The notes: generated by a model from the sequence alone, not told the origin. A stretch of 64,000 bases of DNA from an uncultured Spirochaetales bacterium (GCA_964440465.1 CAYTSI010000005.1:151-64150); one strand, 5' to 3'. Positions 12,175 through 58,476 are shown, counted from the stretch's first letter. Made by a program: numbers and translations.

Positions 12175-14651
12175 TCATCCGGGACCTGCACATTCATACC
12201 TTCGGGGACTTTCAGGATGTCCGGCTGCAGTTTGCAGACGGGTGTAATATTGTCCTTGGTGAAAATGAAGCGGGTAAGTCAACGGTTTTCAATGTAATCG
12301 ATCATCTGCTGTTTACTCCCGTCAAGCTGACGAAGCGTGAAATGGAAAAAAGCTTGAATCGATGGTTTCCCGTTGGAGGCGGGGATACGTTGAGCGCGGA
12401 ATTATCTGCCGAACTCGGGGACAGAGCTGTTCGGTACTTCAAGTGCTGGGGCGGGAATCCGGAAGGAACAATTCGATTTTCACCGGGAGGGACCTATTCG
12501 GGCGATGATGCCCTCGCTGCGGAAACGGAAAAATTGTGGGGATACTCTCCGGAGACGGTGCGGCAGGTTTGCCTGCTGCGGCAGAGTACCCTCGCGGATA
12601 CGCTGCCTTCCTACCAGAATTCGAAGGAGGTATTGCAGTCTCTTACCGACATCCTGCAAAATTCTTTAATAGAAGGCGGCGGTATTTCCACCTCCGGTTT
12701 TATTGAAACTCTCCGGGACCGGTACAGCTTGTTTTTTTCAAGATGGGACAGAGACCGGAACTATCCGGAAAAAAACAGAGGGATTGAAAATCCATGGTCG
12801 GTAAACGTGGGTACGGTTTTGAAATGGTGGTATGAAATGAAGCGGGCCGAGTTAGAGGTCCGGCGGGTAGAGCAGCTGGAAGACTCAATATGTTTACTGC
12901 AGAGCAGCCAAAAAGAAAAAAAGAAGGAAACGGCAGCTCTCGAGTCGTTTCTTTCTGCCTTTGAGACAGTCTACAACACTGCCGGAGACAGAAAAAGCCT
13001 GGAATTGGAACTGCGGGAAATTATCGGTACGATGGAGCGGATAAAGAAAGACAGTCAATCCTGGGGACGGGGGAGGGATGGTCTTGAACAGGCGCTCCGG
13101 GAGCGGAAAGAAGGGAACGAAGAACTTGGAAAGCTCCGCGGGCGGATCGAAAGCAGGGATGAAGTAACGGCGAAACGGAAACGGTTCGAAAAATATCGTC
13201 GGCTGCTGGAGGTGAAAACAAAACTCGACGCCCTGGAGGCAAAGCTCAGAGAACAGCCGGCAATACCGGAAAAGGATTTGCAGGCACTCCGTGAATCAAG
13301 GTTGGCAATTCGGGAAAGTGAGGTGAAACTGCAGTCCGGAACACTCTTTGCACAGCTGACCGCGAAGAAAAATATCAGTTTTTCCTATACTCCCGGATTG
13401 GGCACTGAAAAGCGGCGTGACCTTATGGCAGGGAATTCGCTTGAAATAACGGCGGAAGGGAAAATTCGGCTGAGCCACGAAGACTGGGAGCTGGATGTTT
13501 ATTCGGGAAACGAAGATTACGAAACCGTCAAAAAGGAGCTGGAGGCAGGCAAAAAAGAGTTTAACGCTCTCTGTGAGAAGTACGGTGTTGTTTCCGTCGA
13601 GGAAGGAGAAGCACAGCGGAAGGTTTATACTGATCTGGAAGGGGAAACGGCACGGGCGCGGAAACAATTTTCCGAGGAACGCGGAGAGGACTCTTTTGAA
13701 GCCCTGAAGAAGGAAGTCGAAAGTTTTGGGGCCCTTCCTGAGGAAACCGACAGTACCGAGCTGGGAAGAGAATACGGTTCTCTCAATGAACGGCTTGCCG
13801 CGCTTGAAAAAACAATACAGGAACATCGGGAACGGTTGTCGTATTTGGAAGAGACATATGGGACGGAGGAAAAGCTTCTGGACATGCTCGCGGACCTCCG
13901 CGGCCGGCAGCGGGACTTGGAGAAACAAGTGGCTGCTCTTCCGGAAATTCCTGACCCCTTCGAAACGGCGGAAGAATTTCTTGAGGCATACAGGGAAAAA
14001 CAAAGAAAAAGGGAGACGCTCCGTCAGGAAATATTTGAGTTAGATAAGGCGGCCGCCCTTGCGGTAAAAGACCTCCCGGACATCTCCCTCGAGGAGCTCG
14101 AAGCGGACGCTGAAGCCGCGCGGCGGCGTTTTCAATCCGCGCTTTCGGAGGGGGAGACAATCGGCCGGATTCTCGAGACAGCGCTGCGGATCCAAAAAGA
14201 AATTCAGGAGAACCCCTATACCGCCTTTATGGAGGCGGCGGAAGCAAACCTTAAAAAAATGACCGGGCAGAGGCTGCAGTATAAAAGCAGATCAGGCGGG
14301 GGGGACGGTCAGGCAGCGGCCCCTTTTCACGGTGATGTTAGAAACAGCCGGGGAGAAATTCTGGCGTACGGACAGCTTTCAGGCGGAACGAAAGACGCGG
14401 TTTCTCTAGCCGTCCGGCTGGCAATGGCGGAGTATTATCTGAAAAATAAAGCAGGGTTTCTCCTCTTTGATGATCCCCTAGTGGAAATGGACCCGCGGCG
14501 CCAGAAGGCCGCCGCCGAACTGCTTTCCGAAACCGCCCGGCGCTACCAGTCGATAATCTTTACCTGTCATCCCCACATGCGCGATTTATTCCCGAATGCC
14601 AATGTAATTGAGCTGCATCGGGACGGGGAACGGAGGCGTGTTAAATTTTAA
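12171..14651 (+). CDS. SbcC/Rad50-like AAA ATPase with a long coiled-coil insert (YhaN type). It is translationally coupled to the upstream nuclease by an ATGA overlap.
   Basis: It has Walker A (GENEAGKST), a long E/K/R/L-rich coiled-coil centre, the ABC signature LSGGTKDA, Walker B/D-loop (LLFDDPLVEMD) and an H-loop (FTCH). No CxxC zinc hook was seen. Confidence 0.8.
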   Translation: MIIRDLHIHTFGDFQDVRLQFADGCNIVLGENEAGKSTVFNVIDHLLFTPVKLTKREMEKSLNRWFPVGGGDTLSAELSAELGDRAVRYFKCWGGNPEGTIRFSPGGTYSGDDALAAETEKLWGYSPETVRQVCLLRQSTLADTLPSYQNSKEVLQSLTDILQNSLIEGGGISTSGFIETLRDRYSLFFSRWDRDRNYPEKNRGIENPWSVNVGTVLKWWYEMKRAELEVRRVEQLEDSICLLQSSQKEKKKETAALESFLSAFETVYNTAGDRKSLELELREIIGTMERIKKDSQSWGRGRDGLEQALRERKEGNEELGKLRGRIESRDEVTAKRKRFEKYRRLLEVKTKLDALEAKLREQPAIPEKDLQALRESRLAIRESEVKLQSGTLFAQLTAKKNISFSYTPGLGTEKRRDLMAGNSLEITAEGKIRLSHEDWELDVYSGNEDYETVKKELEAGKKEFNALCEKYGVVSVEEGEAQRKVYTDLEGETARARKQFSEERGEDSFEALKKEVESFGALPEETDSTELGREYGSLNERLAALEKTIQEHRERLSYLEETYGTEEKLLDMLADLRGRQRDLEKQVAALPEIPDPFETAEEFLEAYREKQRKRETLRQEIFELDKAAALAVKDLPDISLEELEADAEAARRRFQSALSEGETIGRILETALRIQKEIQENPYTAFMEAAEANLKKMTGQRLQYKSRSGGGDGQAAAPFHGDVRNSRGEILAYGQLSGGTKDAVSLAVRLAMAEYYLKNKAGFLLFDDPLVEMDPRRQKAAAELLSETARRYQSIIFTCHPHMRDLFPNANVIELHRDGERRRVKF

Positions 14652-14667
14652 GGCACCCGCGAAAGAA

Positions 14668-15645
14668 TTATGAATCGAAGCTGTATTCCCCGCGCCATGA
14701 AACAATGTATTCCCAGACATTTCCCCGCGGCGGCCGTACCGATCCTCCTGTGCCGGGGTCGTACGTCCACGTTCCCGTAATCCCCTTTTCCGCGGCGGCG
14801 GCTTCGAAATGATACATTGCAATTCCCGTATCGATCCGCTGTAGGTCAATGTGCTTCCTGAAAAGCCCGTAAGCTCTGTCCCTTTGCAGAAAAAAATGCA
14901 CCAGGTTCTCCGCTTTCCCGCTGCCCCGGAAGGTGATTATCAGCCGCCATGGCTGCTTGTTTGATGCCGAGGGAGCAAGTCGCACGCATTCGAGAATGAT
15001 CTTTGTTTTTTCGGAAACTTCACTGGGTTGCAGAGGTTTGAGGGGGACAGAGCTGCAGGTAACGAAAAACAGTTTTTCCCACGGTTTCCGGCGTTTCGAT
15101 CCCGCGGCAAATCTGATGAAGCGTGCAGCCGGCCGCCTACGTTCCGCCGGATATCCCACAGGTGTTATTGCAGGGATAATTTCGTTGTCTGGAAGATTGA
15201 GGTATTCTGAAAGTTTCCCGCGCTGAAAAGTTCCCCCGAGCCAGCAGGTCCCGAGGCCGAGATTCGTCAACTGCAGGATAATATGTTCAAAGGTGTAGCC
15301 GAGGTCCGTCATTTTCTGAGGGACAGAGCTGCCTTTTGAGGAATTTTCTATGTTTCGCTTCCGATTTGCAGTGTCCGCCGCGACTGATTTTTCTGTAACT
15401 GTAACAATGCCCGCGGCAAAAAGGCGTGCCCCTCGTATAAAACCGTAAGTACCAAGTGAGCTCCGCCACTCCTCCGGCATACCGGATAGGTCAATCAGCG
15501 TAAACCGGATGCGCGATCCGAACGGCGGGACAGCACCGGGATGTACGATGAGTTTTTCAATTTTATTTACCAGTTCCGGTTCGCAATGCCGCCCAGAATA
15601 AGAGCGGATCGACCTTCTCCGAAGTATTGTATCGTGTATCGTCAT
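14668..15645 (-). CDS. Nitroreductase-family flavoprotein of 325 aa. The internal Met at 15645 is preferred over 15723.
   Basis: RRRSIRSY is near the N-terminus, and GLGTCWLGG and APSASNKQPWRL are nitroreductase signatures. Confidence 0.75.
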   Translation of the reverse strand: MTIHDTILRRRSIRSYSGRHCEPELVNKIEKLIVHPGAVPPFGSRIRFTLIDLSGMPEEWRSSLGTYGFIRGARLFAAGIVTVTEKSVAADTANRKRNIENSSKGSSVPQKMTDLGYTFEHIILQLTNLGLGTCWLGGTFQRGKLSEYLNLPDNEIIPAITPVGYPAERRRPAARFIRFAAGSKRRKPWEKLFFVTCSSVPLKPLQPSEVSEKTKIILECVRLAPSASNKQPWRLIITFRGSGKAENLVHFFLQRDRAYGLFRKHIDLQRIDTGIAMYHFEAAAAEKGITGTWTYDPGTGGSVRPPRGNVWEYIVSWRGEYSFDS

Positions 15646-15836
15646 CGTCTCTTGTCGAGGGTAATTATATTCACAGGTAGGAGAATACTCTAATTGGGAG
15701 TCTACTTCTATGGGCGACCTCAAGTTTTCCCTTACTGGTCTGGAGATGTAAAGCGTTTAGGAAAATCAGCTACTTACTCTTAATGCTCCGTCCCTCATCA
15801 ACAGCACCGGTTATCGCTCACCGGTATTCGGCATTA

Positions 15837-16343
15837 TCAGCGTAACTTCATCCAAACCCGCCGCAGGAAATCATTAGGCGGCCGCTCTAATATGTCCAGC
15901 TGTCCCTTATAGATCAAACTCATGCCGCTGTATTTATAGTCTGTCGCGTATTGGACCATTTTGGCGCGAACTGGGTTATTGGCTATATAAACAAATGTGG
16001 CAAGATATTGCAGGAAACTGTGAATTATTTTGCTTTTAAACCGCTCGTTCCATACATGGCCGGTTAGCCCAAATGTTTTATTATACTGCATCGCGAAAAC
16101 GCTTAAAACCCATTGCATAATGGCCGATAAGCTCTCATTATTCAGCGGTTTTATGATGAAATGGTAATGGTTTCCCATTATACAGAAGTTTTTGATAGTG
16201 AAGCGGTATTTTTTTTTTGCCCTTCTGATGACTTCCATAAACATTTCTTGTATTTCCGGTGTTTTGAATATTACTTCTTTGCGGTTCACTCTGGAAACTA
16301 CGTGATAACTTGCCCCATACTGTAATTGCCTTGGTTTTCTCAT
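15837..16343 (-). mobile_element. REP-associated tyrosine transposase (RayT / IS200-like Y1 HUH transposase). It is a single ORF with no obvious inverted repeats.
   Basis: YHVVSRVNRKEVIF ... GNHYHFIIKP (HuH motif) ... NNPVRAKMVQYATDYKYSG (the catalytic Tyr region) closely matches the RayT/TnpA_REP consensus. The gene and its flanks are low in GC. Confidence 0.75.
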
Positions 16344-16464
16344 TCTTTACCCCCTCGAATAGTCGGTATTTTTTTTTGCCTATACTTAATAAGAAGGGGT
16401 AAATAGGATTGCTGATTTTAAAATTCGGTCATTTTTTTTATTTTTTTTGCTCTGTCCCCATCTT

Positions 16465-17661
16465 TTAGCTTTTTAACCGCTTGAGAAGTTCCCGGGCGAC
16501 AGCTGTCTCAACTTTATCCTCTGTCCCTAGCCCGCATACAGTACGGACCATGTGTTCATGTCCGTTTGCGGCCAGTTCTTCAGCGAACTGCTTGTCCCCT
16601 GGGAAAAGAATGCCGTTTTCGTCGGATCCGCGGAATGCAAACCCGGCGGCGGCTGCCTCGGCAATTGCGCTATAGGGAAGCCCGTGGGTTTCGGCTAAAA
16701 GCATTGCTCCGACCAGCCTATCGTCTTTGGCAAGTTTCCGTTGAAGGTCCCGGCCGACCCGGAAAATGGTATCACCCAATGCTTTATTTCGGAACCTGTT
16801 TAGAAGGTCGCCAATGTGTTCTCGGAGCGCGTCCAGAGAGAGATCGGCCGGGTACGCGGCGTGAAGGGCTTCTCCTGACTGTTCCATTGCTTTTTGTACT
16901 TTATCCTTAATTTCCGGAAGCTCAAGGGGTTCCCAGATGTAGGTAAACCCGGGTTCCTTACGATATCCGATATACGCCGCCGCCGCGTGACCCATATTAT
17001 GAATGAACAGTTTCCTGTCTACGTAGGCGGTTATATTTTCCACTGCTTTTATCTCGGGGAAATCCGGCACTTCTCGGACAAATCCGTGTTTATCAAGGAT
17101 AAGCGTATTGTATTCTTCCGAGAATACCCACAGTGGATCTTCGTTTTTGTCTTCCTCCCGCATAATCGGTACCATTTTCCCAATACTCGTTTCAACCAGG
17201 CCCACTGTTTTCTGAATGGGGAAGCCGGGAGGTAGATATTTCTGCAGTTCCCTTCTAAAAAAAGCAGCTCCGTCCCTCATATTTTCAGCAATAATGATGT
17301 CGATTTTTGCCGCTTCCGTCCGCATTTTTATCCCTTCGGCAATAACGGGGATTATATGCGGTAAGACCCCCTTCCCAACAGACGTGGCAATGTACGCCGC
17401 TTTGGAAATTTCTTCCGCTACTGCAGCTCTGTCCCTGCCGTCGACGGCTCGGACACCGGTAACGAAGACCTCTTCATCTTCCTGATTGTTCCGTTTAATA
17501 ATGACACGATAGGAGTTCCTGCTGTTCAACTCCCGTATCAGCGTTTCATCAATATCGACAAAGACAACCTCATAACCGTTGCCTGCAAACACCTTCCCGA
17601 TAAATGATCTGCCGATATTTCCGGCACCGAACTGCACTAGTTTTTTCTGTTTTTCCTGCAT
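16465..17661 (-). CDS. mtlD: Mannitol-1-phosphate 5-dehydrogenase / mannitol dehydrogenase family.
   Basis: The N-terminal FGAGNIGRSF Rossmann motif and overall similarity to the MtlD family, including NMGHAAAAYIG. Confidence 0.85.
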   Translation of the reverse strand: MQEKQKKLVQFGAGNIGRSFIGKVFAGNGYEVVFVDIDETLIRELNSRNSYRVIIKRNNQEDEEVFVTGVRAVDGRDRAAVAEEISKAAYIATSVGKGVLPHIIPVIAEGIKMRTEAAKIDIIIAENMRDGAAFFRRELQKYLPPGFPIQKTVGLVETSIGKMVPIMREEDKNEDPLWVFSEEYNTLILDKHGFVREVPDFPEIKAVENITAYVDRKLFIHNMGHAAAAYIGYRKEPGFTYIWEPLELPEIKDKVQKAMEQSGEALHAAYPADLSLDALREHIGDLLNRFRNKALGDTIFRVGRDLQRKLAKDDRLVGAMLLAETHGLPYSAIAEAAAAGFAFRGSDENGILFPGDKQFAEELAANGHEHMVRTVCGLGTEDKVETAVARELLKRLKS

Positions 17662-17794
17662 ACCCTATTATAAAGTGTTCGTGTACTCCGATACAAGCCG
17701 AGCGGGAGAGCCTGTCCTTGCCTCCGAAGGCCTTCAGTGCTCTGTCCCCGGAATTGCCGGAATTGCGGAATTGAACTGTCTGCCATTGCACTAG

Positions 17795-18769
17795 ATGATC
17801 ATATTTGAAATACTAAAGAAAAGTGAGGCTGATGTGAAACCAGTAATAACTGCATATGGCGAGGCCCTGTGGGACCTTCTGCCGGAAGGCCCGGTCTTAG
17901 GCGGGGCATTGCTGAATTTTACCTACCGGGCAAAGAGCTTAGGCGCTGACGCGGAATGTATCAGCAGGCTCGGTATGGACGATTTGGGGGACAGAGCTGC
18001 CGGAAAAATGAACGACTTGGGGTTTGATATGAATTATATTCAGAGGGACAGTGCTCACTCTACCGGGACGGTCCCAGTCAGTTTTGATGAACAGAAAAAT
18101 CCCAGCTATGTCATTACCCCGGAGGTTGCGTTTGATTTTATTGAAGACACGGAAAATCTTGAGGCCAGAATACAACAATCCGACTGCCTCTGCTTCGGGA
18201 GCCTTATTCAGCGCGCTCCGGTTTCGCGGGAAACCCTCTACAAACTGATCGAGCAATTCGGGGGCAGGTACCTGCTTTTCGATATCAATTTACGAAAAGA
18301 CTGTTATTCCTCCAAAACGGTGCGCACGTCCCTGGAAAAATGTCATATTGCGAAGCTCAATGAGGACGAACTGCATGAGCTTAAAGAATTAATTGGAATT
18401 TCCGGGAATTCAGTCCGGAAACTGACGCAATCCTGTGTTGAAACCTACGGTTTGACCTATTGTCTCGTAACTTTAGGAGACAAGGGGCTTTTTGCCGCGG
18501 CTGATTCGGGGACAGAGGTGTATGTTCCGGGTATTGTCGTCGACCTTGTCGACCCGATTGGTGCCGGGGACGCCTGTACGGCAGGGTTTATTTTTTCTCT
18601 CCTGCAGGACAGTCCTCTCGATTACGCGTGCAAATATGCCAATGCAATCGGTGCGGCGGTCGCGGAAACTTCCGGGGCCACCGGTTTTGTATCGAAAGAG
18701 CGGATCGAAGCGGTCCTCCGCGGTGGGGACTATTCGGAGCCTCATCCAGAATTTCGGAGGAAGTACTGA
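17795..18769 (+). CDS. PfkB-family carbohydrate kinase, ribokinase/fructokinase-like.
   Basis: DPIGAGDACTAGFIFSL is the PfkB signature 2. An N-terminal GG dipeptide motif region is also present. Confidence 0.8.
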   Translation: MIIFEILKKSEADVKPVITAYGEALWDLLPEGPVLGGALLNFTYRAKSLGADAECISRLGMDDLGDRAAGKMNDLGFDMNYIQRDSAHSTGTVPVSFDEQKNPSYVITPEVAFDFIEDTENLEARIQQSDCLCFGSLIQRAPVSRETLYKLIEQFGGRYLLFDINLRKDCYSSKTVRTSLEKCHIAKLNEDELHELKELIGISGNSVRKLTQSCVETYGLTYCLVTLGDKGLFAAADSGTEVYVPGIVVDLVDPIGAGDACTAGFIFSLLQDSPLDYACKYANAIGAAVAETSGATGFVSKERIEAVLRGGDYSEPHPEFRRKY

Positions 18770-19119: not shown

Positions 19120-19130
19120 GGGGACAGAGC
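19120..19130 (+). repeat. Intergenic copy of the hyper-abundant motif GGGGACAGAGC.
   Basis: An exact match to the core 10-mer that is seen 19 times in the window. Confidence 0.7.
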
Positions 19131-19156: not shown

Positions 19157-19185
19157 TTGACAGGGGACAGAGCCGAAGGTAAACT
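19157..19185 (+). promoter_or_regulatory. Sigma70 consensus promoter for the downstream secreted-protein gene: TTGACA, a 17-bp spacer, then TAAACT. The spacer is itself a copy of the GGGGACAGAGC motif (19163-19173).
   Basis: Read directly as gTTGACAggggacagagccgaaggTAAACT. It is followed by an aaggag RBS and a GTG start at 19204. Confidence 0.5.
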
Positions 19186-23192: not shown

Positions 23193-23561
23193 ATGCCGTT
23201 TAGTATTTTGGAAAAAGACAGGAAGACATTTGAATATTTTAAAAAATACGTTGAGTTTTTAGAGCTCGAGGAAAACACCTGTCTCATCCTTGACAACAAG
23301 ATACAATCCGAGGAAATCCAGGAGCATTTGCGCCGGACCGGTCATAACAGCGGAATGGATGGAAGGAAAAAAGAGATTATTTCACAGTGGATTAAAGAAA
23401 ATGCCCGTCCGTTCCGGGATTATCTGAACAGCATCAAACTTGCCTATGTCGTATGGAAATGCATGGGCAAAGAATGGTCCGAGATAACCTGGGAAGAGTT
23501 CTTCAAAATCGAAGAGCGCCTCAATTCCCTCAAGTACAAATGTCTCGATACGATTTTTTAA
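23193..23561 (+). CDS. Hypothetical protein of 122 aa.
   Basis: ORF only. No motif was recognised. Confidence 0.35.
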   Translation: MPFSILEKDRKTFEYFKKYVEFLELEENTCLILDNKIQSEEIQEHLRRTGHNSGMDGRKKEIISQWIKENARPFRDYLNSIKLAYVVWKCMGKEWSEITWEEFFKIEERLNSLKYKCLDTIF

Positions 23562-25399: not shown

Positions 25400-25444
25400 A
25401 GGACATCCTTTCTTACATATAGAATTTTTAATATATTGATTAAT

Positions 25445-25720
25445 TTACATCGATTTTATCAATTGTTCAAGTCTGTTTTCGGTAATAATTGAACCGGCAC
25501 TGACCTGTTTTCCCCGAACAAGAAGGGCGGGAAACTGATGAATTTCAACACCGGGTACCGTGCATTCTTCATCCGCCCGGAGTTTTACATGATTTATTTG
25601 TATATCGGGATGTTTGGTCTGTATCTCACGCAATACTTCACGAACAATTTGATCGCTAATTGTGCAGGAAGCGCAATGCTGGTCTTTTGAAACAAGGGTA
25701 ATGGTAACAGGTTCAGCCAT
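25445..25720 (-). CDS. Small thioredoxin-like protein with a CxxC motif.
   Basis: The 91-aa protein has CASC and a thioredoxin-like layout. Confidence 0.5.
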   Translation of the reverse strand: MAEPVTITLVSKDQHCASCTISDQIVREVLREIQTKHPDIQINHVKLRADEECTVPGVEIHQFPALLVRGKQVSAGSIITENRLEQLIKSM

Positions 25721-26651
25721 TTCCTTCTATTGTACACGCTTTAATGCTTTGCGCAAGAGATTCTTCGCTGATGCTGCCGCGGATAAGGACGATTTTGCTG
25801 CTGTTTGCTTCGAGAAGCGCGGGAACAGGGGGTTTTTCGGAATAGACGCCGTCAATAATTTCAAAGTACTTCGGACCTTCGGGAAAGCGGAGGACCCCTT
25901 TGCCACGGAGTATTTCCGGTTGTATTTTTTTAATATACGCCTCCCATTTCCCCCGGTCGAGGAGGGCTTTCAGTTCAATACTGAAAGAGAAAAAATTATC
26001 CGGCGGTGTATCGCTGCATTTTTCGGGGACATCCTTCTGCCGCGGCGCGATTTCTTCCAGTGCGTCCCGGGAAACTTCCCCGAAACGGGCGGGAAAGATG
26101 GGGGCGGATTCATTATGTTCCCGCAGAAGCTTTTCCGTTTCTTCCAACCGCTCCGGCGTTACCGTGTCGACTTTATTCAGAATAAAGGCGTCGGCGTATT
26201 CTGCCTGGATCTGTACCGCCTCTAAGGTGGCCTCGACTTTATGAAAATTCGCCGCGTCGATAACACAGAAATTCTGTTCCAGTGATATCAGCTTATCGAG
26301 CCCGTCGAGGCGCATCATGGCATACATATCATCCACCCGGGCGATCCCGGTTGCTTCGATAAGGAGAAAATCGGGCCGCGTCTTCTCCGCTATGTTTTTC
26401 AGCTCCGCGATAAAATCGGTGCGCATGCATACGCAGAAAATGCTGCCCTTGTTGAGTTCGATTTTGTAAAAATCGCCCTCCCGTACCAGGGCGCCGTCAA
26501 TCCCGATGGACCCGAACTCATTAATCATCACCGCGAGTTTTCCGCCCCGGGTACTGTACCATTCGATAAGCCGGTTAATAAGTGTCGTTTTCCCGGCGCC
26601 TAAGAACCCCGTAACCAGGACGGTTTTAATTAGAGGATAGCTTTGATCCAT
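25713..26651 (-). CDS. COG0523 (CobW/ZNG1-like) G3E-family GTPase, a putative metallochaperone.
   Basis: The P-loop is GFLGAGKTT, and the C-terminal CobW_C-like region is present. Confidence 0.8.
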   Translation of the reverse strand: MDQSYPLIKTVLVTGFLGAGKTTLINRLIEWYSTRGGKLAVMINEFGSIGIDGALVREGDFYKIELNKGSIFCVCMRTDFIAELKNIAEKTRPDFLLIEATGIARVDDMYAMMRLDGLDKLISLEQNFCVIDAANFHKVEATLEAVQIQAEYADAFILNKVDTVTPERLEETEKLLREHNESAPIFPARFGEVSRDALEEIAPRQKDVPEKCSDTPPDNFFSFSIELKALLDRGKWEAYIKKIQPEILRGKGVLRFPEGPKYFEIIDGVYSEKPPVPALLEANSSKIVLIRGSISEESLAQSIKACTIEGNG

Positions 26652-28249: not shown

Positions 28250-28388
28250 TATATTCTCCTTACATATGAATATACAAAAATTGCCGCTCTGGAGAAAGGA
28301 TGATCTTTCTAATTTTTGTAATTCCTCTTCCTCCGTCCCCTCATTTATGGTATTTTAGCTGTGGACCCGCAAAATAGAAGGAGAAGAT

Positions 28389-29285: not shown

Positions 29286-29299
29286 CAAAAGGACGGAAC

Positions 29300-30349: not shown

Positions 30350-30356
30350 CCGCGGC

Positions 30357-50000: not shown

Positions 50001-52820
50001 CGGAAAGCGGTAACGGAACTGAGCTTGTACGCCACCGGCGGCGGGTGGGTCCGCTGGGGGTCCGGAGACGCGGACATGCTGGAGCTGAAACCGGACAAGC
50101 AGCTGTATAAGCCGGGAGATACGGCGAAAATCCTGCTGCAGTCTCCCATTCCCGAAGGGGACTACCTGATAACCGTCGAGCGGGAGGGAATTTTCAATGA
50201 GAGAAAAATCAGCGTGGAAGGATCGGCGAAGCTGATCGAGGTCCCGATTACGGAGGACTATCTGCCGGTTGTGTATGTCAGCGTTTCCTCCTATACGGTG
50301 AGGACCGGCAAACCGGAGCATACCTACTTCGAACCCGATTTAGACAAGCCGAAGGGACTCTACGGCGTTACGCCGCTGCGGGTTGAAACGGCGGCGAAAT
50401 TGATCGATATCAGTATCGAACCGGCGGCACCTGCCTATTTGCCGGGGGCTGAGGCGGAAGTGGTCCTTACCGCGACACAAAACGGCAGGCCCGTGGAAAA
50501 CGCGGAGCTTACCTTTTTGGCAGTCGACCGCGGGGTTTTAGACCTCATCAACTACCATATTACGGACCCGCTTGCATTTTTCTACAGTGAAGGACGGTTT
50601 CCCCTGGCCGTGGAGGGGGCGGATTCCCGGTCCCTCTTAATCGACCCGGTTACCTACGACGTGCCCGACCTGGCAGGGGGCGACGGGAAAGACGGAGAAG
50701 ACGAGGGAGGCGCCGGTATGGGGATGAAAAGGCGGGAGGATTTTAACCCTACCGCGGTTTTCGAGCCGTTTCTCAGTACCGATGAAGAGGGCAGAGTAAC
50801 GGTGCGCTTTACCCTTCCCGATACCCTTACAACGTACCGCTTAACCGCCGTTGCGGTACGGGACAACAGCTTCGGTATTCAGGAAAAAGAGCTGAAGGTC
50901 CAGAATCCCATCAACGTAAAAACCGCCTTTCCGCGGCGTCTCCGCTACCGGGACACCGCCGTCGGCAGCGTGCTGCTTACCAATTTAGACGGCAAAGAGC
51001 ACGAAGTTACCCTGAATATCGAATCGGACATTCTCGGTATCGGAGGAAAAAACTCCAAGACCGTTGCCATACCCGCGGCGTCCACCTTGGAAGTGCCGTT
51101 TCAGCTCTTAGCTGTTTCGCCGGGTACGGCGGAAATTACGGTCACCACGAAGTCCGAAGTCCTGGAAGAACAGCTTGTGGAAACACTAATTGTTGAAAAG
51201 CCCTACATTTTCGAAACATTTGCCACTATCGGGCAGGCGGAGGACTCCGCGGGAGAGGGGATTGTACTTCCTTCCTATGTCGACGACGATGAGGGGAGCC
51301 TTACCATTAACCTTTCCGGTTCCCGGGCCGCCTCGTTAGGAGAGGCAATCGACTATGTAATCGGATATCCGTACGGCTGCATGGAGCAGCGGGCGAGCAA
51401 ACTCTTGCCGCTGGTGCTTTTAGAGGATTATGTCGACGATTTCGCTTTGGAAAATCCCGTCGGGGACATCAGGGGAACGGTGCAGGCCGACCTCGACTTG
51501 TGGGGAGCGTATCAGCGTTCCGACGGGGGGTTCCCCTTCTGGCCGGTCCGGGAAGGTGTATATTCATCCTACTATGCCACTGTCCGTGCCGGACACCTCC
51601 TGGCCCTCGCACGGGACCGGGGCTACACGATTCCGGACGGCCTCAGTGTTCCCGGGCTGCTCGACTATCTGGCCAATCCCCCCTCCTCCGCGCGGGGGAA
51701 CAATTACCTCATGCTCTACGGGCTCTATGTCCGCTCCCTCCTCGGTGCCGGAGTTTCCGGGGAGGCGGCCCGCTATTTTGCCAGGGGTGATGAAATTGGT
51801 ATTTCAGGATACGGATTTTTAGGGCTTATTTACCTGGACCAAAACCAGGACAATCAGGCGGAGCAGTGCCTGAACAGAATTAAGCAGTTTGTCCGGCCCG
51901 GTACCCGGTCCGTTGATCTAACGGAAACATACGAAAGCTCCTCGTTTTATAATTCCCAGGTTGAGCAGCTGGCGCTGTTTCTCATGCTTTACAGCCGGAT
52001 CGACCCCGAAAGCGATATGGTAACCAGGATTACCAACACCCTCATGGACAGACAGAAGGGGGGAATCTGGAAAAATACCGCCGATACAAACTGGGCCATT
52101 CAGGCCTTTACCTCATTACTGCAAGCCGAAGGCGGGGGAGGGCCCGATTTTGCCGCGGAGGTGACAATCGACGGTGAGACAATCGCGGAAGCTGAAATCG
52201 ATTCGATCGCGGAAATTTTCAACCGGAAGCTGCCCCTGTCGGGAAGCGTGCTTACGGGATTCGACCGGGACACCATGTATCCCCTTACATTTACAAAAGA
52301 GGGGGCGGGCCGCCTCTACTATACCGCGAGTCTGCGTTACGCAATTCCTTCGGAAATAAGCTACCCCCGGGACGAGGGGATAGGGATTGTCTATGAAATC
52401 AGCACCGTAGACGGGCAGAAGGTGGAGGGTGCTGCCCTTACCGTCGGTAAAACGTACCGTCTGAAAGCGGTAGTTTCCAGCCACCGCGGCCGGAGCTACG
52501 TAGCTGTCCGTCTGCCCGTGCCGTCGGGGGCGGAAATCCTCGATGCCGCTTTCGTTACCACACCGAAGTACGACGAATTTCAGGACCCGGACGTCGACTG
52601 GTCCCGGTATGTTCCATTCGGGTCGAAAATATTCGACAACGAAGTGCGCTATTTCTGGGACGAGTTCCCCCGGGGGCGGCAGGAGGTGAGTTTTCTCTTC
52701 CGGACGACCAGCGGCGGTGTTTTTCCCACGCCTCCGGCAACGGCGGAATGTATGTACGAACCGGAAATTTTCGGCCGGACCGGGGGGAGGATCTTTATTA
52801 TCAAACGGGATGAGGAGTAG
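47040..52820 (+). CDS. Bacterial alpha-2-macroglobulin lipoprotein of 1926 aa with an apparently intact thioester motif.
   Basis: The lipobox is VFTGC. MG-domain repeats are present. GYPYGCMEQRAS is the thioester CxEQ motif. Adjacency to pbpC is the classic bacterial A2M arrangement. Confidence 0.85.
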   Translation: MKRTVMLIALLLGSILLVFTGCTREEAPGAKPATEENTEEMSESQKIQRQLYQDAAINEDLASYDITYYEPDSIQTVAAPVKESDEPFQIVDYGPVEELPPEVVYPSMYVVFSQPVVPLRQLGEPMRSSDIMSIDPPIQGTFRWYGTRLLSFDADEKALPQRRYTVSISDTARSLGGKELTGEKSFSFHTEYLSIRDFFTGTAEGDYSLDDVPPDEAKTIHIVFSHKVNLNVIKNYLSVEAGGRGYNFTIARPDDPENRLSEEIKERTAVLHVEGLFPEDTDVTVTVRKGARSEADFIGTPVNITRSFHTLRPFRFVDYDTCSWSFPRSRQGEANPVYLKFSHSVKAEDLTGKVRTNPAMEITEENVEVYRDRVRINNLPVAPESVYTLFLDAGITDVYGRKLQRSEQVRVEVPPAERYAYFPNTGPRMLEAAFPKRIMWEHQNVFEGLWKADTVSDPYGTFSHEELRPYNFGEIERNKRYFEVYNFKDYLNSEGYGWVGFSWNFGKRNNDGTMPTWTKRDLRLQVTDLGLTVRHGYNKIITLVTSLATGEAVEGAEVSITRKQAVKKSTETDADGLAVFELEEGEYFEYFGVPGRTYENELRIRVKYGNDKIEFKPNYSHDTWRSNIYNTAAPTQIGTPNMVTYLFTDRKLYKPGETVTFRGIDRNQQYGKYTPFSGGYDIAVRESRYRGREITRFRGETTGSGGLYGSFTLPEDAEPGWYEIAYSRDEKTVRELFQVAHFRRLLFSVDMSSPDITHYQGDTVSFTVASEYLAGGALSRGNYEVYWSKRPVTYTPPGDDWKDYRFGPEGYDSRHSLETAEGSLPPTGTINVKQKTSPEGIEGRAYVYEAEARISDVSNQLVAKREGVTVHPAAFYIGARVKDAAGSWYTFVEKGKEMECEVRLVTPEGGLVKDGEKISLTGELYKIEWKLAQQQGVYDTINSRWERVETKIADEEITLSSGKGTARFTPGESGSYYIKFTAEDAMERKAVTELSLYATGGGWVRWGSGDADMLELKPDKQLYKPGDTAKILLQSPIPEGDYLITVEREGIFNERKISVEGSAKLIEVPITEDYLPVVYVSVSSYTVRTGKPEHTYFEPDLDKPKGLYGVTPLRVETAAKLIDISIEPAAPAYLPGAEAEVVLTATQNGRPVENAELTFLAVDRGVLDLINYHITDPLAFFYSEGRFPLAVEGADSRSLLIDPVTYDVPDLAGGDGKDGEDEGGAGMGMKRREDFNPTAVFEPFLSTDEEGRVTVRFTLPDTLTTYRLTAVAVRDNSFGIQEKELKVQNPINVKTAFPRRLRYRDTAVGSVLLTNLDGKEHEVTLNIESDILGIGGKNSKTVAIPAASTLEVPFQLLAVSPGTAEITVTTKSEVLEEQLVETLIVEKPYIFETFATIGQAEDSAGEGIVLPSYVDDDEGSLTINLSGSRAASLGEAIDYVIGYPYGCMEQRASKLLPLVLLEDYVDDFALENPVGDIRGTVQADLDLWGAYQRSDGGFPFWPVREGVYSSYYATVRAGHLLALARDRGYTIPDGLSVPGLLDYLANPPSSARGNNYLMLYGLYVRSLLGAGVSGEAARYFARGDEIGISGYGFLGLIYLDQNQDNQAEQCLNRIKQFVRPGTRSVDLTETYESSSFYNSQVEQLALFLMLYSRIDPESDMVTRITNTLMDRQKGGIWKNTADTNWAIQAFTSLLQAEGGGGPDFAAEVTIDGETIAEAEIDSIAEIFNRKLPLSGSVLTGFDRDTMYPLTFTKEGAGRLYYTASLRYAIPSEISYPRDEGIGIVYEISTVDGQKVEGAALTVGKTYRLKAVVSSHRGRSYVAVRLPVPSGAEILDAAFVTTPKYDEFQDPDVDWSRYVPFGSKIFDNEVRYFWDEFPRGRQEVSFLFRTTSGGVFPTPPATAECMYEPEIFGRTGGRIFIIKRDEE

Positions 52821-52862: not shown

Positions 52863-53118
52863 TAAGTGACAAGGCCCCTCGCCCGCGGAGGGTTCCCGGC
52901 CCCGTCCTGCTACGTCTTCTGGCTGACGGTATGAAAAGTATGCGGATAGTCCTTCCCGCTCACGTGGCAGTGGACCAACCGCGTAGAAACCCTCCACCGA
53001 ACACAGCAGCGCGTCTGCAGCGGAATTACACCGCAATTCCGTATAGCAGGACGGTTAGAAATCACCAACTGTCGGCAGTATACTATTCATCCGCCGGGAA
53101 TGCAAGCAAAAATCCGGC

Positions 53119-53851: not shown

Positions 53852-55759
53852 ATGAACGACAAAGAAAACCAATTTCAAAATCAATTTGACAAACTGCCCG
53901 GCTTTTCCGGCGGGGACAACGGCAACTTTTTCCGCAAATGGGGACCGCTGCTTCTCCTGCTCCTTCTGTTTACCATTCCCTGGATCGTGACCCTCTTTTC
54001 CGGAGGGGTAACCCGTACACAGGTAAGCTATTCCTTTTTTATTCAACAGCTGAACGAGGGAAATATCGAGTCCGTGCTGGTCCGCGGCGAAGAAATACAA
54101 GGAACGCTGAAGGAAAATGCCCTGACGCTGTCGACGGAAGGGGACGGCGGGGGGACGGAGGTGCGCCGGTTTACCACATTTTATCCGGCAAAGATCAGCA
54201 GTTCGCTCATTTCCGACCTCCAGGGCGGCAATGTTGTGGTATACACCCAGCCTGAAAGGGAGGGGGATTTTTTTACCGTTCTTCTGAATATTCTTCCGTT
54301 TCTTTTTATTTTCTGGATCATTTTTCGGCTTTCCAAACGGATGCGCGCCCAGGGCGGAGGGCTGTTCAATGTTGGCCGGAACAAAGCGAAAAAATATGAA
54401 AAGAAACGGCAGGAGGAAACCACCTTTGACGATGTGGCAGGGATAGAATCGGCGAAGGCCGAACTCAAGGAAATTGTCGATTTTTTAAAGAAGCCGGACA
54501 AGTACCGCAATTTCGGCGCGAAAACGCCGAAGGGAGTACTGTTAGTGGGTCCTCCGGGGACCGGAAAAACGCTCCTTGCCCGCGCGGTCGCGGGGGAGGC
54601 GGATGTGCCCTTTTTCAGCATCAGCGGTTCCGATTTTATGGAAATGTTTGTCGGTGTCGGCGCTTCACGGGTGAGAAATCTGTTTCGGGACGCAAAAAAG
54701 CAGCAGCCGAGTATTATTTTTATCGACGAACTCGACTCCATCGGCAGGAGCCGGGGCGCGGGTTTAGGGGGCGGACACGACGAGCGGGAACAGACCCTCA
54801 ATCAGCTCCTTTCCGAACTGGACGGATTCGAGCAGGACGAAAGCACAATCGTTCTAGCCGCTACCAATCGGCCGGACATTCTCGACCCCGCTCTGCAGCG
54901 CCCGGGAAGGTTTGACCGGCAGATTACCACAAATCTGCCGCCGAAGAAGGACAGAACGTCTATTCTGCGAATCCACAGTAAAAACAAACCATTGGCGGAA
55001 TCCGTGGACCTCGAGCGGCTTGCCTCGAGCACACCCGGGTTCAGCGGCGCGGATTTGGCAAACCTGCTGAACGAGGCGGCCTTGATCGCGGTAAAAAACG
55101 GGAAAAAGGAAATTGAACAGGAGGACCTTGATACGGCCAGGGACAAGGTGATACTTGGTCTTGAACGGAAAAGTGTCGTCATGAGCGACCGGGAAAAGGA
55201 GATTGTAGCGTATCACGAATCGGGGCATGCCTTAGTGGCGGCGCTCCTTCCCAATGCGGAGCCGGTCCACAAGGTCACCATTATCCCACGGGACCGTTCC
55301 ATGGGGGCGACGCAGCAGCTTCCCGAAGAAGACAGGTATCTGTATGAACTCGCCTATCTGCAGGACCGGATTTCGGTAATGATGGGAGGCCGGGCGGCTG
55401 AAAAACTGAAAACCGGTACCCTGACAAGCGGCGCGGAAAACGACTTGAAGGAGGCACAGAAACTCGCGCGGAAAATGGTCCTTGACTGGGGAATGGCGGA
55501 ACAATTCGAGAATATCGCCATGGGCAGCCAGCGGCAGAATGTTTTTTTAGGTGAACAGATCGCGGCTGAAAAAGAGTACAGCGAAGAGACAAACCGGCAC
55601 ATCGATGAAGCGGTGCAAAAACTGCTGACCGATGCTTTTAACCGGGCAACGGAAAACTTACAGGAGCAGGAGAAAGTCCTGGACGGTATTGCCGAAATAC
55701 TGCTGCGGGAAGAGGAGATATCCGGGCGGCAGATTTATGAAATGCTCCACACACAGTGA
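53852..55759 (+). CDS. ftsH: ATP-dependent zinc metalloprotease FtsH.
   Basis: It has two TM segments, AAA+ Walker A (GPPGTGKT) and Walker B (IIFIDELD), an SRH, and the HESGHAL zinc-binding HExxH motif. Confidence 0.9.
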
Positions 55760-56217: not shown

Positions 56218-56229
56218 AAAACAGGCTTA

Positions 56230-58476
56230 TTGAAAAGAAACGGTAACTATATACCGGTAATTGTCGCGGGAATAATTATTTTCCTGTTTGTTACCGGAGA
56301 AATTACACTGCGGCATCTCCCCTTTCCCGAACTTGAGGCGTTTCAGAACAGGGCGTACAGTACAATAGTAACCGACAGAAACGGCACAATTCTCAGAATT
56401 CTTCCTCTCGAAGGAGGATTGAGGCGGGAATACGTTCCCCTCGAAGAACTGCGCCCGGAGATTGTCCGGATTTTTATCGAAAGCGAAGACAAGCGGTTCT
56501 CTTTTCACCGCGGTGTGGACGGTTTTGCCGTGCTGCGCGGTTTTTTTCAAAACAGACGAGCGGGACGGACGGTTTCGGGGGCGTCCACCATCTCCATGCA
56601 GCTGGCGGGTCTTGTCCGCCCGCGAAAGCAGACCGTCGGGGGCAAGGTCCTTGAAGCCTGGGACGCCCTTCGCCTGGAGGCAAAACTCTCGAAACGGGAA
56701 ATCCTCGAGCTGTGGCTAAACTCTCTCCCCTTCGGCAGGCAGGCGGAGGGTGTCGGGAGCGGCAGCAGGGCCTACTTCAATATATCCGCCGCGGACCTCT
56801 CAATTCCGGAGGCGGCCCTTCTTGCCGTTGTTCCGAGGCATCCGAAAAAGTACAGCCCCGTCGACAATCCAGAGGGCGCGTATGAAGGCGCGCTCCGCAA
56901 TGCCGGGAGGCTTCGTACGGACATTTCCGCACAGGAGCTGCGGAAGGCCGCCCGGGCCGCGGAGCCGGGAAATTTTATCTACCACGCGCCCCATTTTCTT
57001 CGTCAAATAGGGACAGAGCTCGGCGGCAAGCAGGGCGGCAGGGTAACAACCACATTGGATCTGGAACTTCAGCAGCATTTTCACCGTCTTTTGTCCACCT
57101 ATCAGCAGCGGTACGCCCAAAGCCGCATTACCAGCGCCGCCGGAATGCTCATCGACAATCATACGGGCGAAGTCCTTGCCTACGTCGGTTCACTCGACTT
57201 TTTCTCCGGCAGAGCGGGGGAGCAGCTGGACGGGGTAACCGTCCCGCGGCAGCCCGGGTCCTGTCTTAAACCCTTTCTTTACGCGGCGGCGCTGGAGGAC
57301 GGGTGGTATCCGAACACACTGCTTCCCGACGTCCCGCTCAATTTCGGCGGGGGCGAGGTATATGTGCCTTCGAATTTCACAAATTCTTTTTCCGGTCCCG
57401 TCAGGCTTCGGGTTGCCCTCGGGTCGTCTCTGAACGTACCGGCGGTCTATCTGTTGGATGAGATCGGGTTGGAACGGTTCGGGGAGCTGCTGCGGGCGGC
57501 GGGTTTTCACGTCGGAGCGGGCGCGCTTGAGAAGGCGGGCCTCGGCGCCGCGTTGGGCAATCTGGATGTCTCCCTCCTGGAACTGACCCGGGGCTTCGCC
57601 CTTTTCCCCCGGCGTGGTGTGCCCCTGGAGCTTTCATGGACACTCCCCGAAGTTTTCGAAGGGCCCTCCCCCGCGGGACGGGCCGTTTCCGAATACACCG
57701 CCGATATTATCTGCGACATCCTCTCGGACCCGGCGGCGAGGGCCCGGGGGTTCGGGTACAATTCCGCTTTTACCCTTCCCTTTCCCGCCATGTTTAAAAC
57801 CGGGACAACCGATCAGTTTCAGCACATCTGGGCCCTTGCCGCGACGCCGGATTATACCGTGGGCATATGGATGGGAAACAACACCGGGGAAACGGTAATC
57901 GGCCGGACCGGTTCCTCCGTCCCCGCGCGGATAGCGGCTGAAGTGCTTACCTTCGCGCGGAAGGGGAGGGCGGAATTCCCGGTCCCGGCGGGGGCGGTGC
58001 CGGTGGAGATCTGCACAGTATCCGGGCAGCGGGGGACGGAGCTCTGTCCCTCCGTTGTTACCGAATACCTGCCGGCGGCCGGCGGGGAAGGGGCTGTACC
58101 CGGTCCCTGTACATTTCATATACTGCGAAACGGTACGGTAACAACCGAGTATCCGGAAAAATATCATGCATGGCTGCGGGAGCTGGGCCGGTCGGGGGGA
58201 TTTTCCTTCTCCGGCGGAGAAGGCCTTGAAATTATTCACCCCCGCGGCGGAGCGGTATTTTACTATGACCCGACAGTTTCCGCCGGAGTCCAGGCGCTGC
58301 GGGTCGAGGCAGCTGCCGGCAGGCCCGGGGCCTGCACACTCTATGTAAACGGCGAAAGGGCGGGTACTGTTTTCCATCCCCCCTATGTATGGTTTTTGCC
58401 GCTTCAGCGGGGAGCGTGGGAATTGACCGTATCGAATACCGGTTCCGAGGCGACGGTGCGCGTCGAAGTCCGCTAA
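56230..58476 (+). CDS. pbpC: Penicillin-binding protein 1C, with a GT51 transglycosylase domain, a transpeptidase domain and a C-terminal PBP1C domain.
   Basis: It has an N-terminal TM segment, the GT51 motifs EDKRFSFHRGVD and RPRKQTVGGKV, an SxxK-type transpeptidase region, and a C-terminal domain. It is paired with A2M. Confidence 0.85.
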   Translation: MKRNGNYIPVIVAGIIIFLFVTGEITLRHLPFPELEAFQNRAYSTIVTDRNGTILRILPLEGGLRREYVPLEELRPEIVRIFIESEDKRFSFHRGVDGFAVLRGFFQNRRAGRTVSGASTISMQLAGLVRPRKQTVGGKVLEAWDALRLEAKLSKREILELWLNSLPFGRQAEGVGSGSRAYFNISAADLSIPEAALLAVVPRHPKKYSPVDNPEGAYEGALRNAGRLRTDISAQELRKAARAAEPGNFIYHAPHFLRQIGTELGGKQGGRVTTTLDLELQQHFHRLLSTYQQRYAQSRITSAAGMLIDNHTGEVLAYVGSLDFFSGRAGEQLDGVTVPRQPGSCLKPFLYAAALEDGWYPNTLLPDVPLNFGGGEVYVPSNFTNSFSGPVRLRVALGSSLNVPAVYLLDEIGLERFGELLRAAGFHVGAGALEKAGLGAALGNLDVSLLELTRGFALFPRRGVPLELSWTLPEVFEGPSPAGRAVSEYTADIICDILSDPAARARGFGYNSAFTLPFPAMFKTGTTDQFQHIWALAATPDYTVGIWMGNNTGETVIGRTGSSVPARIAAEVLTFARKGRAEFPVPAGAVPVEICTVSGQRGTELCPSVVTEYLPAAGGEGAVPGPCTFHILRNGTVTTEYPEKYHAWLRELGRSGGFSFSGGEGLEIIHPRGGAVFYYDPTVSAGVQALRVEAAAGRPGACTLYVNGERAGTVFHPPYVWFLPLQRGAWELTVSNTGSEATVRVEVR

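Follow-up and report, generated by a model that had tools for sequence, protein, structure and literature searches.

RAYT genes, which encode REP-associated tyrosine transposases of the HUH/Y1 family (REP, repetitive extragenic palindrome), are widespread domesticated transposases that are normally sought via extragenic palindromes and abundant 16-mers; how they spread repeats and serve their host is an open question in the field. In the REPtrons of E. coli, Pseudomonas and Stenotrophomonas (PMC8266576, PMC3116915, PMC5581495), a vertically inherited RAYT gene in single copy has at its flanks the short sequence that is also hyper-abundant elsewhere, and the copy number and variant of this sequence differ by lineage and track the RAYT. 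In the TIRYT arrangement described by Di Nocera et al. 2013 (PMC3733652), the RAYT gene is bracketed by inverted terminal copies. Hyper-abundant short words are also known as DNA uptake sequences (DUS) of Neisseriaceae and as uptake signal sequences (USS) of Pasteurellaceae (PMC2817400, PMC2346458). Here, a 64-kb stretch of DNA (the window) from an uncultured Spirochaetales bacterium of a microbial-mat metagenome (GCA_964440465.1 CAYTSI010000005.1:151-64150) is analysed, in which the word GGGACRGAG is scattered over both strands and flanks a single-copy RAYT gene; about 65 kb of this genome were read, the contig being 65,018 bp long. Comparison of related loci suggests, with a rough probability of 0.6, that the word is the cognate DNA site of this RAYT in a REPtron-like partnership. 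The best reading of the repeated partner is a short linear word, mostly intragenic, rather than an extragenic hairpin of the REP/REPIN type. The gene in question is:

15837-16343 (-) RAYT gene, product of 168 aa with HYH as HUH motif and the catalytic Tyr in YIANNPV

Abundance and extent of the word

The first-pass annotation had listed 19 copies of the 10-mer GGGACAGAGC (13 on the + and 6 on the - strand). All of these exist, many with starts displaced by 1-2 nt, and the complete count for the window is 22 exact copies (14 on +, 8 on -), since a further 10-mer at 14873(-) had been missed, as had two at 2750(-) and 3238(-) in the microcompartment locus. This locus (0-12 kb) had been described as free of the word but also holds G-variants at 7146 and 11747. 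The expectation for the 10-mer is 0.13, more than two copies were never obtained in 100 dinucleotide-preserving shuffles, and Markov models of order 1-5 predict 0.08-1.4 copies. The over-representation also stands against the one-mismatch neighbours: of the 30 single-base neighbours only two are sizeable, A->G at position 6 with 7 copies and C->G at position 10 with 4, the others being almost absent. Because only these two are numerous, the unit was taken as GGGACRGAG, and the true unit is R-GGGAC-R-GAG-S-W (S, C/G; W, T/A), 9-12 nt long. GGGACRGAG occurs 46 times (26 on +, 20 on -) versus about one expected copy, i.e. about 40-fold above chance.

The flanks of these copies show a purine before the word, C/G at +9 and T/A at +10, without conservation past -1 or +11, so that alignment of the flanks reveals no extended conservation beyond 11-12 nt. 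Extension to GGGACAGAGCTG is reached by nine copies, not eleven as first counted. Two sub-families of longer identity, AAATAGGGACAGAGCTCG at 42988 and 57010 and CGGAGGGACAGAGCTG at 33050 and 43250, were found as described, as were near variants of the 10-mer at 27215, 16519 and 18041. Minority spellings, GGGACGGAGG with 10 and GGGACGGAGC with 7 copies in the window, may represent older layers. Variants with a single mismatch show no enrichment (30 within 55 kb of coding sequence versus 89 in 194 kb of word-free relatives), thus decayed copies are rare.

Column counts of the 46 copies revealed neither a longer repeat, a miniature inverted-repeat transposable element or a hairpin around them, nor a GTAG (or CGTC) tag. 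The mean minimum free energy of 89-nt windows centred on the copies is -24.4 kcal/mol compared to -21.4 kcal/mol for random windows; this difference is marginal and probably compositional, and a REP-like structure around the copies was therefore rejected. Searched for in the literature, the word itself brought up nothing but eukaryotic primers and similar matches. The 18-nt inverted dimer GGGACRGAGCTCYGTCCC matched 41 metagenome stretches, all by chance or unrelated and none of this lineage, and a viral scan with GGGGACAGAGCTGC gave 78 single chance matches. Two unrelated metagenome contigs (L172, 455-682; L177, 2449-2676) contain six copies of GGGACAGAG in both orientations within about 220 nt, which looks like an iteron or operator array, unlike the dispersed pattern described here.

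Association of the word with the RAYT gene

The RAYT protein matches the Pfam family Y1_Tnp (PF01797, 57 bits) and the NCBIfam model NF047646 (REP_Tyr_transpos, 80.2 bits, cutoff 80). Its sole match in the PDB is E. coli TnpA-REP (4ER8, E=1.3e-3), with HYH aligned over HMH and YIANNPV over YIYINPV. The exact protein was found at this locus only, in four contigs, and is thus taken as single-copy. The gene is syntenic in a relative of 80% identity (L209-L211), and a RAYT 89% identical to that of the window is present on the NCBI contig taken as that of L004 (CAZSGZ010000012.1), a relative with 91% nucleotide identity over 21.3-40.0 kb of the window. Single copy and synteny point to vertical inheritance in the window, L004 and L209 lineages rather than to repeated insertion. 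The gene does not qualify as a member of IS200/IS605, being single-copy, scoring 32.7 with the transpos_IS200 model (cutoff 55) and lacking hairpin ends. A plasmid search with the protein yielded only matches of at most 36% identity, none from spirochaetes.

Relatives were mostly reached via RAYT homologues, and 10-20 kb of each were examined. Homologues of 80, 68, 68, 65, 62, 61 and 53% identity are situated in six further genomic contexts, and in all seven independent contexts, the window included, a sense copy of GGGACRGAG is located 73-125 nt upstream of the RAYT start, the Markov expectation being 0.1-0.4 copies per whole 20-kb RAYT locus. The presence of the word in relatives, which the first-pass annotation had left to be checked, thus extends from L004 and L209-L211 to other RAYT-bearing lineages. 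In the syntenic L209-L211 (80% identity) it is spelled GGGACGGAGCT(G), with 11 copies in 15.9 kb and 8 in 9.3 kb (0.7-0.9 per kb). L212, L218 and L221 (68, 65 and 61%) have the gene in other contexts, within word-rich DNA of other spellings, and L216, L219, L220 and L222 (68, 62, 61 and 53%) have it in AT-rich DNA with 2-4 word copies per 20 kb. In several lineages, that of the window among them, the word reaches about 0.7 copies per kb over tens of kb, occurring on both strands and mainly within genes.

L219 and L222 carry an additional inverted copy 271 and 234 nt downstream of the RAYT stop, and their RAYT is therefore bracketed as by terminal inverted repeats. The window RAYT is flanked by copies at -115 (16450-16458) and +43 (15786-15794), both sense, and no complementary arm was observed at the RAYT-proximal copies. 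The commonest spelling at position 6/position +9 equals that of the RAYT-proximal copy in the window (A/C), L209 (G/C), L218 (A/G) and L221 (G/G); in L212, A/G and G/G are about equally frequent and the RAYT-proximal copy is G/G. Furthermore, the density of the word in the window is highest near RAYT, with 2.4 copies per kb up to 2 kb away compared to 1.0 from 2 to 5 kb and 0.3-0.9 beyond, and the mean distance between copies and RAYT is shorter than under uniform placement (P=0.006). An earlier conclusion that the word is absent from the nearest relatives (L084 and L085, 80% FtsH identity) was withdrawn, since RAYT-fetched contigs of probably the same lineage carry the G spelling; L085 and L210 stem from the same sample, and the FtsH region is word-poor in the window, too.

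Some features of the RAYT surroundings may be noted separately. A short hairpin, ACCGGT-GAGCGATA-ACCGGT, lies 3' of the RAYT stop (15795-15836(-)) and precedes the downstream word by 11 nt; this sequence was not seen beside other copies. Between the upstream word and the RAYT start (16344-16449(-)), an A-rich tract is followed by a conserved block, AAAAATGAC..AATTTTAAAATCAGCA, which is common to the window, L209 and L212, in part also to L216, and may represent a RAYT promoter or leader. L220 (1-20335) and L221 (1-12510) encode an identical RAYT protein in a block of about 4.3 kb (SLBB protein, RAYT, IS66 transposase) with differing flanks, that of L221 being word-rich (9 copies in 8 kb) and that of L220 word-free with defence-type genes (DruA, SMODS/HEPN). 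Either a horizontal transfer of the RAYT block or a chimeric assembly is indicated.

These contexts bear on an alternative in which the word is abundant for a host reason, e.g. as site of a nucleoid or repair protein, and the RAYT cassette is an IS200-like element that inserts into it. Some insertion sequences insert specifically into REPs, the cassette is found in different genomic contexts, its position beside an IS66 transposase on two backgrounds in L220/L221 suggests some mobility, and the strand-symmetric enrichment reported below would be expected of a double-stranded binding site. However, only 0.1-0.2 target words are expected per 20 kb in the word-poor genomes, yet the word is kept at a fixed distance and orientation. 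The inverted copies on both sides of RAYT in two lineages look like element ends and not like a target, the spacing of 73-125 nt is conserved along with the gene, as is the A-rich tract, and the single-copy RAYT keeps its synteny in the lineages of the window, L004 and L209. Insertion into a pre-existing word is accordingly regarded as quite improbable.

Placement, frames and effect on proteins

The copies of the word in the window are as follows (coordinates, strand, spelling, placement):

2751-2759 (-) GGGACAGAGCAA, antisense, RnfC-like gene 2435-3790
3239-3247 (-) GGGACAGAGCTC, antisense, RnfC-like gene
7146-7154 (-) GGGACGGAGCTC, antisense, DeoC-like gene
11747-11755 (+) GGGACGGAGCTG, sense phase 1, SbcD-like gene
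12418-12426 (+) GGGACAGAGCTG, sense phase 1 (G-D-R-A), SbcC-like gene
12745-12753 (+) GGGACAGAGACC, sense phase 1, SbcC-like gene
13860-13868 (+) GGGACGGAGGAA, G-T-E, SbcC-like gene
14874-14882 (-) GGGACAGAGCTT, sense phase 1, nitroreductase gene
15044-15052 (+) GGGACAGAGCTG, antisense, nitroreductase gene
15320-15328 (+) GGGACAGAGCTG, antisense, nitroreductase gene
15786-15794 (-) GGGACGGAGCAT, intergenic, 43 nt 3' of RAYT stop, in RAYT's orientation
16450-16458 (-) GGGACAGAGCAA, RAYT-proximal, in sense orientation to the gene, beginning 115 nt upstream of its start codon, followed by A-rich tract
16519-16527 (-) GGGACAGAGGAT, G-T-E, mannitol dehydrogenase C-terminus; orthologous copy in L209 has G spelling
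17268-17276 (-) GGGACGGAGCTG, sense phase 1, mannitol dehydrogenase; absent in L209, substitutions only
17427-17435 (-) GGGACAGAGCTG, sense phase 1, mannitol dehydrogenase; absent in L209, substitutions only
17740-17748 (-) GGGACAGAGCAC, divergent intergenic region
17988-17996 (+) GGGACAGAGCTG, G-D-R-A, PfkB; orthologous copy in L209 has G spelling
18509-18517 (+) GGGACAGAGGTG, G-T-E, PfkB; L209 site GGGACCGAG
19121-19129 (+) GGGACAGAGCAT, intergenic
19164-19172 (+) GGGACAGAGCCG, intergenic, 32 nt before gene at 19204
24208-24216 (-) GGGACGGAGTCG, sense phase 1, RACo; common to L209, lost in L004 (GGGATGGAG)
25225-25233 (-) GGGACGGAGCTT, sense phase 1, RACo; common to L004, absent in L209
27215-27223 (-) GGGACAGAGGTG, G-T-E, URO-D-like gene
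28331-28339 (-) GGGACGGAGGAA, divergent intergenic region
29696-29704 (+) GGGACGGAGAAT, G-T-E, DBI_PRT; L004 site GGGACGGAA
30335-30343 (+) GGGACGGAGGAA, G-T-E, DBI_PRT; A spelling in L004
33050-33058 (+) GGGACAGAGCTG, G-T-E-L, vWA gene; adjoined by 3-nt indel relative to L004
34575-34583 (+) GGGACGGAGGAG, G-T-E, histidine kinase gene
34854-34862 (+) GGGACAGAGCAA, G-T-E, histidine kinase gene
35109-35117 (+) GGGACAGAGGAG, G-T-E, histidine kinase gene
35892-35900 (+) GGGACAGAGCTG, G-T-E-L, histidine kinase C-terminal tail
36026-36034 (+) GGGACGGAGCCG, G-D-G-A, response regulator gene
36382-36390 (+) GGGACGGAGGAA, G-T-E, response regulator gene
37056-37064 (-) GGGACAGAGCTG, G-T-E-L, ARMT1-like gene
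39296-39304 (+) GGGACGGAGGAA, G-T-E, penicillin amidase gene
41957-41965 (-) GGGACAGAGCAA, sense phase 2, LPP20-domain gene
42137-42145 (+) GGGACAGAGCCT, antisense, LPP20-domain gene
42412-42420 (-) GGGACGGAGGCG, G-T-E, LPP20-domain gene
42988-42996 (+) GGGACAGAGCTC, antisense, radical-SAM gene
43126-43134 (-) GGGACGGAGGAG, G-T-E, radical-SAM gene
43250-43258 (+) GGGACAGAGCTG, antisense, radical-SAM gene
54152-54160 (+) GGGACGGAGGTG, G-T-E, variable periplasmic part of FtsH; homologues have GKQ, GTK or GPQ, no gap
57010-57018 (+) GGGACAGAGCTC, G-T-E-L, PBP1C
57915-57923 (-) GGGACGGAGGAA, antisense, PBP1C
58033-58041 (+) GGGACGGAGCTC, left half of inverted dimer 58033-58050, PBP1C
58042-58050 (-) GGGACAGAGCTC, right half of inverted dimer, PBP1C

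Six copies are intergenic, and the other 40 (87% of the 46) lie within about 25 unrelated genes, the open reading frames (ORFs) of which stay open. Unrelated flanks and unrelated host genes agree with the initial view that these are independent sites and not paralogous sequence. Thirty genic copies are sense and ten antisense; the peptide encoded is Gly-Thr-Glu (G-T-E) in 19 copies and x-Asp-(Arg/Gly)-Ala in ten. The use of several frames had been recognized from genes in which the word encodes G-T-E (vWA, histidine kinase and PBP1C) or G-D-R-A (SbcC-like and PfkB), which was confirmed, and the resulting proposal that pressure acts on DNA rather than on peptide is borne out. Nineteen of the 23 G-T-E tripeptides in window genes are spelled GGGACRGAG, with 1.3 expected from codon usage. 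G-T-E reaches 12.5 per 10,000 aa in the window compared to 1.7 in related spirochaete loci without the word, and from this sevenfold excess it follows that the word has altered protein sequences; it fills most positions allowed by the protein sequence.

A codon-shuffle null within genes predicts a sense:antisense ratio of 3.9:1, since word and coding strands are both purine-rich, and 3:1 is seen. The sense bias, which the first-pass annotation had overlooked, is thus a by-product of codon composition. Relative to this null, enrichment of the word amounts to 25-69 fold in four frames out of six; in the remaining two, one antisense and one sense, it is 12 fold and 5 fold, respectively. Selection or drive therefore acts strand-symmetrically on the DNA word, which excludes an explanation at the level of peptide, codon pair or mRNA. 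A by-product of protein or codon selection (G-T-E peptide, codon-pair bias, mRNA signal or paralogous domains) could appeal to the 30 of 40 genic copies in sense orientation, of which 19 encode G-T-E. However, G-T-E has 32 possible spellings and the word is used for 19 of its 23 occurrences, enrichment of 12-69 fold is seen in five of the six frames, the three antisense ones among them, with a sense bias as expected from codon shuffling, six copies are intergenic, the host genes are unrelated and relatives lacking the word have seven times fewer G-T-E; this explanation is already refuted. An mRNA-level or transcription-coupled role, suspected from the 30:10 bias and from co-oriented intergenic copies, was likewise rejected on the basis of the 3.9:1 null and the equally enriched antisense frames.

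The distribution over the two strands also argues against a polar Chi or KOPS (FtsK-orienting polar sequence) signal read by RecBCD/AddAB or FtsK. The word is over-represented and intragenic, and an SbcCD-like pair is encoded nearby. However, the cumulative GC skew rises throughout the 64-kb window, and the copies within it are divided 26 (+) to 20 (-), so that no strong orientation bias results. As already suspected, polarity of the Chi type is absent, the small + excess reflecting gene orientations and the codon-driven sense bias. Known Chi sites are 5-8 nt long, and the word is longer and far more enriched than any of them. In addition, the link to RAYT would be left unexplained, and a polar signal appears highly implausible.

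Three stretches are word-free (19.2-24.2, 43.3-54.1 and 58.1-64 kb), of which 43.3-54.1 kb could be a recent acquisition. The alpha-2-macroglobulin gene (1926 aa, 5.8 kb, 47040-52820) contains no copy. Five copies were reported for the PBP1C gene (56230-58476), the usual partner of the alpha-2-macroglobulin gene; they include the inverted dimer at 58033-58050, the presence of which was verified.

Conservation and origin of the copies

The L004-aligned stretch comprises 13 copies of the window, of which ten are identical in L004, one differs in an A/G switch at position 6 and two have been lost there through a single substitution; two further copies are private to L004. Divergence amounts to 3/117 (2.6%) in the word, 49/312 (15.7%) in the +-12-nt flanks and 9.0% elsewhere (Fisher P=5e-5 versus flanks, 0.009 versus the rest), and the word is therefore protected within fast-evolving segments. 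In FtsH, for example, G-T-E is part of the variable periplasmic domain and aligns without gap to GKQ, GTK or GPQ of homologues. All eight lineage-specific sites in well-aligned sequence (17268, 17427, 18509, 25225 and 20680 versus L209; 24208, 29696 and 39527 versus L004) differ by substitutions only, without length change. The copies were therefore made in place and not inserted, and an origin by in-frame insertion of 9 or 12 nt was rejected. At the orthologous sites 16450, 16519 and 17988, the window reads A where L209 reads G.

Indels between close relatives are few, and several of them lie within about 10 nt of copies (33047/33050, 34560/34575, 35892/35900 and 16519, versus L004 and L209). 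The simpler explanation may be that these copies lie in variable, indel-tolerant loops, a role as fragile sites being the alternative; the numbers are too small to decide.

Substitution-only gains and conserved copies in fast-evolving gene segments are also features of DNA uptake sequences, and the main rival explanation is that the word is of the DUS/USS type, accumulated by receptor-biased uptake and recombination, with the copies beside RAYT being incidental or hitch-hiking. Its density of about 1 per 1.4 kb, its sharp core with a weaker flanking consensus and its mostly intragenic position on both strands in few preferred frames would fit, and the stretches without the word might have been acquired recently. 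As in USS and DUS genomes, where it about doubles (PMC2817400), the encoded tripeptide is enriched, one orientation is favoured within genes as for USS and DUS (PMC2346458), and the lineage spellings resemble DUS dialects (PMC3630211). However, uptake leaves unexplained the sense copy 73-125 nt upstream of RAYT in seven of seven contexts, including the word-poor L216, L219, L220 and L222, the inverted bracketing in L219 and L222 and the density peak beside RAYT. Moreover, single-mismatch variants are not enriched, and the sole inverted pair lies inside a gene and not at a terminator. Competence genes were not found in the loci examined, which comprise about 65 kb of this genome and only 10-20 kb per relative. 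To our knowledge, competence is not known for these uncultured spirochaetes.

The word as RAYT site is preferred because an uptake sequence is not expected to be fixed beside one gene in word-poor lineages, and uptake is considered unlikely. Among the three causes between which the first-pass annotation had not chosen, the recombinase or endonuclease site of RayT is hence favoured, since the word is the conserved RAYT flank in every lineage examined; the uptake sequence is weakened, and restriction-modification is without support.

Possible mechanism and implications

If the word is the cognate site, the RAYT protein may bind or nick it in single-stranded DNA, and the ensuing repair or strand transfer could be biased to create and keep the word. 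Such a process would be a conversion-type molecular drive and not cut-and-paste transposition. In one version, nicking or strand transfer by RAYT would be followed by short-patch repair templated on the word; in the other, RAYT would be relaxase-like and each word a chromosomal nick site biasing which DNA passes on. The confidence in the mechanism of spread is lower than that in the RAYT link, and the full proposal, according to which a domesticated HUH/Y1 RAYT reads a linear 9-12-nt word and drives it into coding DNA chromosome-wide by non-transpositional conversion, is offered tentatively.

Several observations weigh against a RAYT-word partnership. The evidence linking the two is their genomic association, nearly all word-rich samples lie within 48 kb of a RAYT gene, and the loci were fetched via RAYT. 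A matching spelling would also follow if the RAYT-proximal copy shared the same genome-wide pressure. L084/L085, which were fetched via FtsH and probably belong to the L209 lineage, have no word copy in 13 kb. The copies flanking RAYT in the window are co-directional and not inverted, the NCBIfam score barely exceeds its cutoff (80.2 versus 80) and the similarity to E. coli TnpA-REP is weak. We know of no RAYT or HUH activity that writes its site by base replacement, and conversion drive would be without precedent. The studied TnpA-REP enzymes all require a stem-loop and GTAG (PMC8266576), neither of which is present here. The literature searched contains no description of such a system, and none linking RAYT to spirochaetes or to intragenic short words.

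If the link is causal, the range of REP-type systems widens, and signatures resembling uptake sequences can arise without an uptake receptor and are alone no evidence of competence. A 12-nt oligonucleotide of the word would then be a simple substrate for RAYT biochemistry. If the conversion mechanism is true, there would be a second, mechanistically different route to genome-wide word saturation, of which uptake sequences have been the only known case so far, and RAYTs would gain an activity that rewrites host proteins. In addition, the word can serve as a practical marker of lineage when metagenomic contigs of these uncultured spirochaetes are binned.

Other features of the window

A bacterial microcompartment locus (1-8300) encodes a CcmP-like shell protein, an RnfC-like flavoprotein, a BMC-domain protein, an aldehyde dehydrogenase, two EutN/CcmL proteins, RpiB and a DeoC-type aldolase. 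Genes at 23558-31271 and 60230-61654 form a corrinoid-dependent methyl-transfer set with RACo activase, CobW, URO-D/MtaA-like protein, S-methyltransferase and DBI_PRT. The MttB-superfamily gene of this set is probably a non-pyrrolysine member, because its score (304 bits) is far under the trimethylamine methyltransferase cutoff of 525. A cobalamin riboswitch (52892-53065(-); Rfam RF00174, 50.7 bits versus a gathering score of 31.5) is situated within the gap of 588 nt that follows the alpha-2-macroglobulin gene. The anaerobic ribonucleotide reductase NrdD (43692-46351(-)) is apparently split into ORF 44225-46351, covering positions 1-538 of Pfam NRDD, and ORF 43692-44228, covering positions 532-562 with the glycyl-radical end. 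The two ORFs overlap by 4 nt, and the split could be due to a frameshift, an assembly error or a real division of the gene.

Comparison with known systems

The short asymmetric word differs from HIP1, the highly iterated palindrome GCGATCGC of cyanobacteria, which has 8 nt and has been linked to DNA methyltransferases. Like the word, HIP1 is hyper-abundant in genes in all frames and conserved beyond its surroundings; the word, however, is asymmetric, longer and linked to RAYT.

With DUS and USS (PMC2817400, PMC2346458), the word shares length, density at about 1 per kb, occurrence on both strands, preferred frames, tripeptide enrichment, location in poorly conserved segments, lineage dialects (PMC3630211) and accumulation by point change, the signature of molecular drive. 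However, the distribution of DUS and USS is independent of any one gene, whereas here the word is anchored to the RAYT gene, with an invariant RAYT-side copy and a density peak beside it. Furthermore, the tripeptide is enriched sevenfold and not about twofold, single-mismatch variants are few, inverted pairs of the terminator type were not observed, and the loci examined gave no sign of competence or of a pilin-type receptor.

The TIRYT arrangement (PMC3733652) is approached by L219 and L222, in which inverted word copies bracket RAYT. Yet terminal inverted repeats of TIRYTs are long and moderately abundant, and the word has about 10 nt. REPs occasionally reside inside ORFs (PMC3733652), but these are insertions encoding about 20-30 extra residues, and no insertion is seen here.

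The three REPtron traits introduced above are found here, namely a single-copy, vertically inherited RAYT with HUH motif and catalytic tyrosine, an abundant repeat flanking the gene, and a copy number and variant that differ by lineage and track the RAYT. In contrast to REPtrons, the unit is linear and 9-12 nt long instead of a palindromic stem-loop of 20-40 nt with a GTAG/CGTC tag at its foot, 87% of the copies are intragenic on either strand instead of extragenic, and the copies arose by base replacement without length change and alter the composition of proteins. The word would escape a 16-mer screen such as those by which REPINs are found. These comparisons suggest that the partner of a RAYT clade in Spirochaetota is a short and mainly intragenic word without hairpin, which is an unusual form of a known repeat-plus-transposase partnership.

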